Shown here in pieces: positions 8,042-9,969 of a stretch of 64,000 nucleotides of DNA. Position 1 is the stretch's first letter. The number at the start of each line of letters is the position of its first letter. The DNA is taken from the NCBI RefSeq assembly GCF_057098645.1, contig NZ_CM169472.1. One strand, written 5' to 3'. Under the pieces are notes generated by a model. That model had not been told where the DNA came from and did no database searches. It saw only the letters and a program-made list of their open reading frames with translations. Made by a program: the position numbers and the translations under genes.

Positions 8042-8986
8042 ATGATGAATAATGCTTCACAACCGACAGTACTGCTTTTTGCCGGTCAGGGTAATCCGGT
8101 TATTGGTATGGGCAGCGATCTTTGGGATCTCAACGCCAGTACAAAACATATCTGGGATTGTGCCAGCGATATTTCCGGACTGAACCTGCGTCGCCTGTGT
8201 CAGAAAGGGCCGATGAATCGCCTTATTCAAACGACGGTACAACAACTGGCGGTGACCGCAATTAATGTAACGCTCTATACCCTGTGCCGCGAGCGTCTTG
8301 AGAATTTAACGGTTGTGGGCTCCTGCGGACACAGCGTTGGTGAATACAGTGCGCTCTACGCCGCTGGAGCTATTTCTCTTGAGACGCTATTTGGCATGAT
8401 TCACTTCAGAGCCAGCCTGATGCATGACGAAAGCCAGAGAAATAAAGGCGCAATGCTGGCGGTTAAAGGCATCAACCGCGAACAACTGCAGACGATGATT
8501 ACGGAATCAGGCATTGCGCTGGATATTAGCTGTGATAACACGCCGCGCCAGCAGGTTATTGGGGGAACGCAGGCTGCGTTGAATGAATTTGCCACGCTGC
8601 TGATGGCCGCTGGGTACGAACCGGTTAAACTCGGTGTGAGCGGTGCTTGGCACACGCGTTTGATGGAAGACGGCGTTCAGGCAATGCGCGATTATCTTGC
8701 CGGACTGGATATCGCTTCGCCAGAGCATCAGGTTCTGATGAACGTAACAGCAAAAAGCGAGGTCGCTCCGTCAATTATCAAAGAAAATCTCTCATTACAC
8801 TTAACTCATACGGTGAAATGGACTGAATCTCTCGATACATTTCTGAATATGCCAACCCCGGTAGCTTTCCTTGAAATAAGTAATAAGCCCTATTTGGGGA
8901 ATATGTTAAATGATTTTGCTGGCGTGGATCAGCAACGAGTTATGCATTGTCGTAAAGCATTTAGTGATGCGAAGGTATTCAAATGA
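8042..8986 (+). CDS. ymdE: FabD-like acyltransferase (malonyl-CoA:ACP transacylase family), intact
   Basis: FAGQGNP near N-terminus, GHSVGE nucleophile elbow, conserved Arg (FRASL), GAWHT His motif. Sits directly upstream of ycdU, where K-12 has the ymdE pseudogene (recollection). Confidence 0.65.
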
Positions 8987-9969
8987 TTCCTGATTATTTA
9001 ACTTTTATTCGCTTTCAGGATAAACGAAATCTGATATACATTTATGCTATTGGACTTATTCTGATAGGCTTTTATTGGAAAAATGCAGGGTTTACTTTTC
9101 CATCAGAGGATATTGGTGTAGTTAGTGGGATTCTGGCCCTGGTGCTGTATAATTTTATTTTTGATCTCAAGGCGTACTGGGCTTATAAATGCGTCACGAA
9201 GAATATCGATTTTTCGTGGTTTAAGAAAAAGCAGAACCACAAAATAGAATTATTTCTTACACAACCTCTGGTGGCAGGATTTCTGTCGTTAATCATGTTG
9301 AGTGCAATGAGTTGGGGGCTATACCAGCTTCTACCCTCGTTATATGCGCTGTTCCTGATTTCGTTACTTGGGCCGTTGGTCATCTTTCTGTTGTTTCGGA
9401 TGATCCGCACCAGTTATGTCAAGCAGGTCGCTATTTCAGTAGCGAAAAAAGTAAAATATAAAAGTCTGACTCGCTATGTGCTGCTTTCGGTGTGTATCTC
9501 AACGGTTGTTAACCTGCTTACTATCAGCCCGTTGCGTAACAGTGATTCTTTTGTGACAGAGGGGCAGTGGTTAACGTTTAAATCGATAATTGCATTGCTC
9601 ATTCTTTGTGGCGTAGTGTTGGCGATTAATCTATTTTTTCTGCGCTTCTCCAAGCGGTACGCTTTTCTGGGCAGGCTTTTTTTGCAGGAAATCGATCTGT
9701 TTTTCTCCAGTGAAAATGCGTTGTCGACCTTTTTTGCCAAGCCGCTTTGGCTTCGGTTATTCATATTGCTGGTTATTGAAGTGATGTGGATTACGCTGGT
9801 GTCGGTATTGGCAACGCTTGTGGAATGGCGGATTTGGTTTGAAGCCTATTTTTTACTCTGCTATGTACCGTGCTTAATTTACTATTTTTTCCATTGTCGG
9901 TTCCTCTGGCATAACGATTTTATGATGGCATGTGACATGTATTTCCGTTGGGGGCATTTTAATAAGTGA
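8983..9969 (+). CDS. ycdU: Polytopic inner-membrane protein YcdU
   Basis: 328 aa, multiple hydrophobic helices; ATGA overlap with the acyltransferase gene; position upstream of serX. Confidence 0.75.

Follow-up and report, generated by a model that had tools for sequence, protein, structure and literature searches.

The 64,000-nucleotide stretch of DNA analysed here (the window; contig NZ_CM169472.1 of assembly GCF_057098645.1) covers part of an Escherichia coli chromosome, from the pga/dgcT-ycdU-serX-ghrA-csg region to plsX-fabH-fabD. The gene at positions 8042–8986 is, very probably, an intact and dedicated acyltransferase of a self-contained type II fatty-acid/polyketide-like cluster, with ycdU as the last gene of that cluster. 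In E. coli O157:H7 this cluster makes up the right-hand portion of O-island 47, and the acyltransferase is the penultimate cluster gene. That the acyltransferase is intact (as a gene annotated in RefSeq) and that K-12 ymdE is a remnant of it (PMC4951805) were already known. The finding explains the K-12 pseudogene and gives a concrete context to ycdU, a K-12 gene of no known function, which in every other genome examined is the last cluster gene, beside the acyltransferase.

An intact acyltransferase distinct from housekeeping FabD

RefSeq lists the product of the open reading frame (ORF) at 8042 as ‘ACP S-malonyltransferase’ (ACP, acyl carrier protein; WP_001389577.1), annotated as intact and with a start one codon later (8045; 313 amino acids, aa). 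An earlier, sequence-only reading of this DNA had described an intact 314-aa ORF with four FabD motifs, and all four were found as described in a frame that is open throughout: FAGQGNP (Gln16), GHSVGE (Ser98), FRASL (Arg123) and GAWHT (His204). The four residues correspond to FabD Gln11, Ser92, Arg117 and His201, and were invariant in an alignment of E. coli FabD with 13 orthologues (54–81% identity to the window protein). Pfam Acyl_transf_1 (PF00698) matched residues 12–290 (E = 3.1e-25), and 105 distinct PDB sequences matched at E ≤ 1e-3, the best being PksC (5DZ6, E = 1.3e-32) and DisD (3SBM, E = 5.5e-32), with bacterial FabDs next (E. coli FabD 1MLA, E = 1.4e-22). Because of the Acyl_transf_1 match, the matches to solved acyltransferases and the existence of orthologues by the hundred (54–99% identity), this is not a chance ORF. 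The gene also looks functional, as had been proposed, being of full length, conserved in its catalytic residues and intact according to RefSeq.

The acyltransferase shared only 25% identity with E. coli FabD in alignment, and scored 178.1 bits against the NCBIfam fabD equivalog model TIGR00128, below the cut-off of 260.9. Nor does it belong to the plsX-fabH-fabD-fabG-acpP operon: the ORF at 8042 sits 55 kb away in a different operon, and the genuine fabD begins at 63526, so that both acyltransferase paralogues lie within the same 64-kb window. Low identity, a score below the cut-off and a separate fabD together mark the ORF as a second, specialised paralogue rather than the FabD orthologue, and assignment as housekeeping FabD was rejected on the curated cut-off and gene context. 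The earlier description of the protein as ‘FabD-like’ therefore stands as regards the shared catalytic set, but not if taken to mean a FabD orthologue; it is better called a paralogue dedicated to the cluster. One might still suppose a redundant second housekeeping FabD feeding general fatty-acid synthesis, its position next to ycdU having no functional meaning, since the protein has the catalytic residues and fold of FabD and carries the same RefSeq product name. This is very unlikely: besides the sequence divergence and the fabD already present in the fab operon, E. coli genomes carry the gene only when they carry the cluster, and its position there is the same in Enterobacterales, in an Acinetobacter and in a Neisseria-labelled genome. 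Two further candidates were rejected. The malonate decarboxylase epsilon subunit MdcH (TIGR03131) gave 143.7 bits against a cut-off of 297.9, with no neighbouring mdc genes, and a trans-acyltransferase polyketide synthase (PKS) system of the PksC/DisD type is at odds with a cluster that contains no modular synthase, all of its proteins being discrete and the largest 852 aa.

FabD Arg117 binds the free carboxylate of malonyl, and GHSVGE is the malonyl type of motif among acyltransferase domains. The retained Arg123 and the GHSVGE motif argue for a substrate of the malonyl (dicarboxylic) type. Some traits in the alignment are peculiar to the family: GQGNP in place of GQGSQ, Trp203 preceding the catalytic His, a number of conserved Cys residues, and a C-terminus with conserved His-Cys-Arg/Lys. 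These unusual features (Trp203, GQGNP and the conserved C-terminus) would fit a protein that is not a malonyl loader, such as a PksD/PedC-like acyl-hydrolase with an editing role, or an enzyme loading some other unit (for example, a starter linked to the GcvT-like enzyme of the cluster), as would the origin of its closest solved relatives in trans-acyltransferase polyketide systems, which also have hydrolase-type paralogues, and the lack of any other recognisable loading enzyme in the cluster. Such a role is nevertheless unlikely given the invariant Arg123, the malonyl specificity of the best matches, PksC and DisD, and a motif of the malonyl type.

ycdU closes the cluster wherever it is found

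A profile search of 1.84 billion proteins yielded a YcdU family of 69 representatives, and YcdU homologues formed 114 clusters at 90% identity. In all non-E. coli loci with readable upstream DNA (28/28), an acyltransferase gene lay immediately upstream of the YcdU homologue, and the downstream flanks were different in every genus and unrelated to those of E. coli. Five genomes (Kosakonia, Acinetobacter sp. ANC 4558, the Neisseria-labelled genome, Utexia and Klebsiella michiganensis) had YcdU directly after the acyltransferase in the same gene order: tandem ketosynthase (KS-KS), single ketosynthase (KS), chain-length-factor (CLF)-like protein, ABC ATPase, 218-aa protein, permease, LolA-like protein, 462-aa protein, acyltransferase, YcdU. 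The ycdU homologue of the Neisseria-labelled genome was uncalled in the annotation, its ORF being present. Homologues recovered by profile only, at loci designated L011, L012, L013 and L015 (E = 1e-25 to 1e-13), each directly followed an Acyl_transf_1 gene, two of the four (L011 and L013) with the 4-nt overlap seen in E. coli; structural relatives of YcdU at that profile distance had 15–24% identity to it.

A scan of one genome per species, which detects only YcdU genes with two conserved peptide motifs, gave 20 loci. With one E. coli-like contig (L017) set aside, the acyltransferase was immediately upstream in 19/19, and the order from KS-KS to YcdU was present in 17/17 with enough flanking sequence. 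The contig set aside (QFQM01000612.1, 1615 bp), labelled ‘MAG: Flavobacterium psychrophilum’, carries sequence with 99–100% identity to E. coli ycdU and a ymdE-like stub, and is almost certainly E. coli contamination of a metagenome-assembled genome. The most distant YcdU-like genes, L014 and L016, are on contigs that start approximately 130 bp before the gene, where the upstream gene is not assessable; in both, an AcpS gene directly follows the YcdU-like gene, with a 4-nt overlap. No cluster-independent YcdU homologue was found among the 69 family representatives. To judge from gene order, then, ycdU, wherever it occurs, is dedicated to this type of cluster and stands last in it, and the systematic evidence for this is new here.

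Comparison of K-12 with O157 has led to another view, in which ycdU is an independent backbone gene beside the island and its ATGA overlap with the acyltransferase gene is incidental. Among 5426 complete E. coli genomes surveyed, 2662 contained ycdU, about 2270 of them without the cluster; in these cluster-less genomes the gene is intact with few non-synonymous changes, and Goldstone et al. reported ymdE-ycdU to be over-represented among mastitis isolates without the cluster (PMC4951805). Independence is nonetheless quite unlikely, since non-E. coli homologues occurred only at the cluster end after an acyltransferase (all 28 loci, with unrelated flanks), none of the 69 representatives was cluster-independent, the two unclear cases precede an AcpS gene, and the island boundary within the acyltransferase gene is explained by the end-point of an IS3 deletion, described below.

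The acyltransferase-ycdU junction

The sequence-only reading had further claimed that the acyltransferase stop overlaps the ycdU start, linking ycdU to the biosynthetic operon. Both points are upheld: the ATGA is present as described (Table 1), and the 4-nt overlap is accompanied by an acyltransferase directly upstream in every evaluable locus outside E. coli. Spacing from stop to start across loci was either this 4-nt overlap (E. coli, including the O157 locus L003; Acinetobacter; L011 and L013) or a gap of 9–34 nt. A Shine-Dalgarno-like GAAGG lies 7 nt from the ycdU ATG, and a promoter and terminator scan of positions 7800–10500 gave counts within the expectation from shuffled sequence, with no site at the junction. 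The pair thus shows stop/start overlap, an internal ribosome-binding sequence and no intervening promoter or terminator, the sequence features of a coupled pair. On these features co-transcription and, in E. coli, translational coupling appear well supported.

K-12 ymdE is a clean IS3-bounded truncation

Any match to the acyltransferase ORF was found in 2624/5426 genomes, whereas at least 80% of its full length was present in 389/5426; the upstream 8 kb of the cluster was present in 390/5426, and the full-length gene occurred essentially only alongside it. Almost all of the remaining matching genomes fell into two truncated classes, starting from the equivalent of window position 8458 (a 528-bp remnant) or 8643 (the K-12 class); a sample of ranking rows taken at even intervals put the latter at roughly twice the frequency of the former. 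In both classes the gene is joined directly to one and the same IS3 end (...GGGTAAGATCA), beside dgcT (junctions at L002 4935–5000 and L009 5935–6002, equivalent to window 8643 and 8458, respectively). In approximately 41% of the complete E. coli genomes, including K-12, the IS3 end has taken the place of all that precedes a point within the acyltransferase gene. Two nested end-points sharing one IS3 end are consistent with adjacent deletion by an IS element; during laboratory evolution this IS3 copy gave rise to a 26.5-kb adjacent deletion that begins at ymdE (PMC8611074). The boundary of O-island 47 falls inside the acyltransferase gene for this reason: the right border of the island is an IS3 deletion end-point.

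The sequence-only reading had proposed aligning the ORF to K-12 ymdE and its flanks, expecting ymdE to be a decayed relic. K-12 ymdE (b1028) aligned from window 8643 to the stop, comprising the last ~343 bp at 99.4% identity, with the IS3 end directly adjacent and the first ~600 bp gone. It shares with the window gene its locus, frame and ATGA overlap with ycdU, but is fused to the IS3 end, from which its first codons derive; after the junction the protein sequence is identical to that of the window, with no stop or frameshift. It is therefore a remnant, as proposed, but a clean 5′ truncation rather than a decayed gene. His204 is kept and Gln16, Ser98 and Arg123 are lost, and K-12 ymdE therefore cannot be an active acyltransferase.

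Goldstone et al. (2016) described ymdE of MG1655 as a 388-bp gene foreshortened by IS3, with a 945-bp homologue in other phylogroups, and raised the possibility, from the lack of further mutations, that the short gene retains function (PMC4951805). The absence of stops and frameshifts past the IS3 junction, the identity of the protein to that of the window and the co-maintenance of ymdE with ycdU accord with that proposal. The residue analysis gives it no support: three of the four catalytic residues are gone, the first codons come from IS3, and preservation is equally explained by a recent deletion or by the stub carrying the ribosome-binding region of ycdU. We regard a functional short ymdE as highly improbable.

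A probable type II lipid or polyketide cluster with a putative export route

In cluster-positive E. coli the genes are ordered TpsA, TpsB, AcpS, FabG-like reductase, FabZ-like dehydratase, ACP, GcvT-like aminomethyltransferase, KS-KS (852 aa), KS (407 aa), 317-aa protein, LolD-like ATPase, 218-aa secreted protein, MacB/FtsX-type permease, LolA-like (TP_0789-like) protein, 462-aa secreted protein, acyltransferase, YcdU. Known hosts are E. coli O157:H7 and O55:H7 together with Klebsiella, Enterobacter, Kosakonia, Mixta and Acinetobacter. The cluster corresponds to the ‘fatty-acid synthesis’ part of O-island 47, or S-loop 71 (z1528–z1556) (PMC8565820; PMC1635569). The O-island 47 genes with published studies are grvA, vmpA and otpAB; literature searches on its lipid genes, by EDL933 and Sakai locus tags, by island name and by combinations of features, returned annotation-level mentions only and no functional study.

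The 317-aa protein had no match in Pfam. Its predicted structure (predicted local distance difference test, pLDDT, 82; predicted template modelling score, pTM, 0.85) has a ketosynthase/chain-length-factor fold, and on this model it is a cryptic CLF-like partner of the third KS, an identification added by the present analysis. In Mixta mediterraneensis (L018 2174–3127) the reading frame of the homologue is interrupted by an in-frame stop at aligned codon 35, which could reflect a pseudogene or a sequencing error. The gene set of a type II PKS is thus present, with discrete ketosynthase and CLF-like partner, reductase, dehydratase and ACP. No enoyl reductase was recognisable among the cluster genes, and no aryl starter-unit genes (ammonia-lyase, CoA-ligase) were seen in the cluster annotation. 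Gene content of this kind, with no recognisable enoyl reductase, suggests a self-sufficient polyketide/fatty-acid line of the highly reducing type II sort, which would activate its own carrier protein, load malonyl itself and export by a Lol-like route. In the Neisseria-labelled genome (L007 19500–20921, minus strand), a second pair of TP_0789/LolA-like protein and ~438-aa protein (no Pfam match) occurs ~9 kb from the cluster, and the LolA-like protein with its ~460-aa partner may be a reusable two-gene module.

A two-partner secretion pair, comprising a TpsA exoprotein and a ShlB-type TpsB, adjoins the cluster in four different arrangements (O157, L003 1599–7119; Acinetobacter, L037 2433–6687; Utexia, L008 12398–20601; and L014 1848–10476). 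The pair lies immediately upstream of acpS, 15 bp away in E. coli and 23 bp away in Acinetobacter, and downstream of the ycdU homologue in Utexia; L014, a distant metagenomic relative, has the order YcdU-like, AcpS, TpsB, large TpsA. The E. coli pair is OtpAB, ECs1282–1283 (bioRxiv 10.1101/2020.04.13.038984). Unrelated housekeeping genes border the complete 17-gene unit in Acinetobacter, an arrangement that points to joint action of the secreted protein and the lipid pathway. That two-partner secretion genes repeatedly accompany the cluster is a new observation.

YcdU: a membrane protein with a conserved cytoplasmic face

An AlphaFold model of YcdU built with 27 sequences (pLDDT 86, pTM 0.83) has eight long membrane helices. 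The predicted loops contain 24 Lys and Arg residues on the cytoplasmic side versus two on the periplasmic side, and this positive-inside count places both termini in the cytoplasm. Of the 46 invariant or nearly invariant positions, 29 fall in predicted cytoplasmic segments and three in periplasmic loops; conserved cytoplasmic residues include the N-terminal MIPDY..R.QD, W66/Y68, R142/Y145/Q148, a KRYxFLGRLFLxExD loop and the C-terminal WH...CDMYxR. Of all the cluster proteins, YcdU varies most between species (41–55% identity, versus about 80% for KS-KS). No family match was found in Pfam (27 members searched) or NCBIfam, a PSII_Ycf12 match (E = 1e-3, one member) being dismissed as a transmembrane-helix artefact, and no similar solved structure was found. 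As modelled, YcdU represents a small family without structural relatives and with a conserved cytoplasmic face, a description that is new here. In K-12, chromatin immunoprecipitation located a weak intragenic PhoB site inside ycdU, and ycdU RNA counts were low (PMC10294691).

A proposed role for the cluster

In the pathway that we envisage, the acyltransferase would take malonyl from malonyl-CoA onto Ser98 and pass it to the cluster ACP, itself activated by the cluster's own AcpS. Chains would be extended by the KS-KS protein and by the third KS paired with the CLF-like protein, and processed by the ketoreductase and dehydratase. Ribosomes ending the acyltransferase gene would re-initiate on ycdU, such that both proteins are made together, and YcdU, at the cytoplasmic face of the membrane, might either dock the acyltransferase/ACP machinery or hand the finished ACP-bound chain to a membrane acceptor. 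Export onward would proceed via the Lol-like ABC transporter, the LolA-like carrier and the secreted 462-aa protein. In the genomes with the IS3 end, what is left of this unit is ymdE, a 3′ stub without catalytic capacity, and ycdU, intact but orphaned.

More tentatively, and on balance doubtfully, the acyltransferase and YcdU may be the closing module of an undescribed unit of ~17 genes (OtpAB, AcpS, the type II polyketide/fatty-acid line with its GcvT-like enzyme, and Lol-like export). YcdU would then found a new inner-membrane family that accepts the ACP-bound chain on the cytoplasmic side and transfers it to the envelope, and the product would be an outer-membrane lipid of a new kind or a lipid attached to the secreted OtpA. 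Were this so, K-12 ycdU would be an orphaned piece of a ~17-gene machine; and if the cluster makes an envelope lipid or a lipidated exoprotein, it would bear on the surface biology of the host bacteria.

Several points weigh against these proposals. The acyl donor could be different, because Trp replaces the Phe of PksC and DisD in GAWHT and GQGNP replaces GQGSQ. Translational coupling is deduced from the overlap only, and the overlap itself is not essential, because the genes are 9–34 nt apart in about half of the other lineages. The motif-based species scan is biased to close relatives, a bias that the four distant profile-only loci offset only partly. The ratio of non-synonymous to synonymous substitution (dN/dS) in ycdU between cluster-positive and cluster-negative E. 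coli was 0.04–0.29, with no relaxation shown, from only 4–16 differing codons per pair; an intact ycdU with low dN/dS in cluster-less strains could reflect either a cluster-independent role or a recent deletion. The role proposed for YcdU has no support from homology, as no fold or family match was found, and is held with moderate to low confidence. Lastly, no biochemical or expression data for the acyltransferase gene, YcdU or the cluster product were found in the literature searched.

Features of the window

The features discussed are collected in Table 1. The 462-aa secreted protein is possibly located in the outer membrane, to judge from its signal peptide and aromatic C-terminus, the only basis for this placement. 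Between ycdU and serX, K-12 strains have one to four tandem repeats resembling the RtT small RNA (L002 6701–7380); the 190 bp between ycdU and the tRNA gene in the window (9970–10161) contain none, and in O157 and PapRG-06-5 an integrase-bearing island is found directly 3′ of ycdU instead.

Table 1. Coordinates of cluster genes, junction features and flanking genes in the window.
Feature	Position	Strand	Remarks
852-aa KS-KS gene, 3′ end	1–1002	+	Gene start upstream of window; two ketosynthase domains
Divergent third ketosynthase gene, 407 aa	1007–2230	+	
317-aa protein gene	2227–3180	+	Ketosynthase/chain-length-factor-like fold (model), no Pfam match; start overlaps stop of preceding ketosynthase gene
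Exporter genes	3191–5849	+	LolD-like ABC ATPase, 3191–3898; 218-aa secreted protein, 3882–4538; MacB/FtsX-type permease, 4539–5849
LolA-like (TP_0789-like) periplasmic protein gene	5858–6646	+	
462-aa secreted protein gene	6643–8031	+	No Pfam match
Acyltransferase gene	8042–8986	+	Malonyl-CoA:ACP transacylase type, discrete, intact; 314 aa
Codon for Gln16	8087–8089	+	Catalytic
Codon for Ser98	8333–8335	+	Catalytic
Codon for Arg123	8408–8410	+	Catalytic
Codon for His204	8651–8653	+	Catalytic
Point equivalent to junction of 528-bp ymdE remnant class with IS3	8458		
Point equivalent to junction of K-12 ymdE with IS3	8643		
Shine-Dalgarno-like GAAGG	8971–8975	+	Within acyltransferase coding region; read from sequence
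ATGA overlap	8983–8986	+	Acyltransferase stop TGA, 8984–8986; ycdU start ATG, 8983–8985; two shared bases
ycdU	8983–9969	+	Last gene of cluster; open for 328 aa; predicted 8-helix inner-membrane protein
serX, tRNA-Ser (GGA)	10162–10249	-	Marks end of locus
plsX	61419–62489		
fabH	62557–63510		
Housekeeping fabD, 5′ part	63526–64000	+	Cut by window end

Comparison with known systems

E. coli FabD (PDB 1MLA/2G1H) has the Acyl_transf_1 fold, the aligned Gln, Ser (in GHSxGE), Arg and His, and a stand-alone length of ~310 aa in common with the window protein. The latter is distinguished by its gene lying in a dedicated cluster and not in the fab operon, and by Trp203, GQGNP, its conserved Cys residues and the His-Cys-Arg/Lys tail. 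Closer in sequence are PksC of the bacillaene pathway (5DZ6) and DisD of the disorazole pathway (3SBM), which are likewise free-standing, malonyl-specific acyltransferases serving the dedicated carrier proteins of a secondary-metabolite pathway, with the motif VSGAFHS comparable to VSGAWHT here. They differ in that they serve giant modular polyketide synthases, whereas the partners here are discrete type II proteins, and in having Phe where Trp precedes the catalytic His in the window protein.

For the cluster as a whole, the nearest likenesses are with highly reducing type II systems, namely the aryl-polyene clusters and the ishigamide Iga KS/CLF system, with which it shares a FabG-like reductase, a FabZ/ApeI-like dehydratase, a dedicated ACP, a LolA-like export component and the lack of a recognisable enoyl reductase. 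Aryl-polyene clusters have an MMPL-type exporter. The window cluster departs from these systems in possessing its own acyltransferase and AcpS, a GcvT-like aminomethyltransferase and a MacB/LolCDE-type ABC exporter, in being adjoined by a two-partner secretion pair, and in ending with the membrane protein YcdU.

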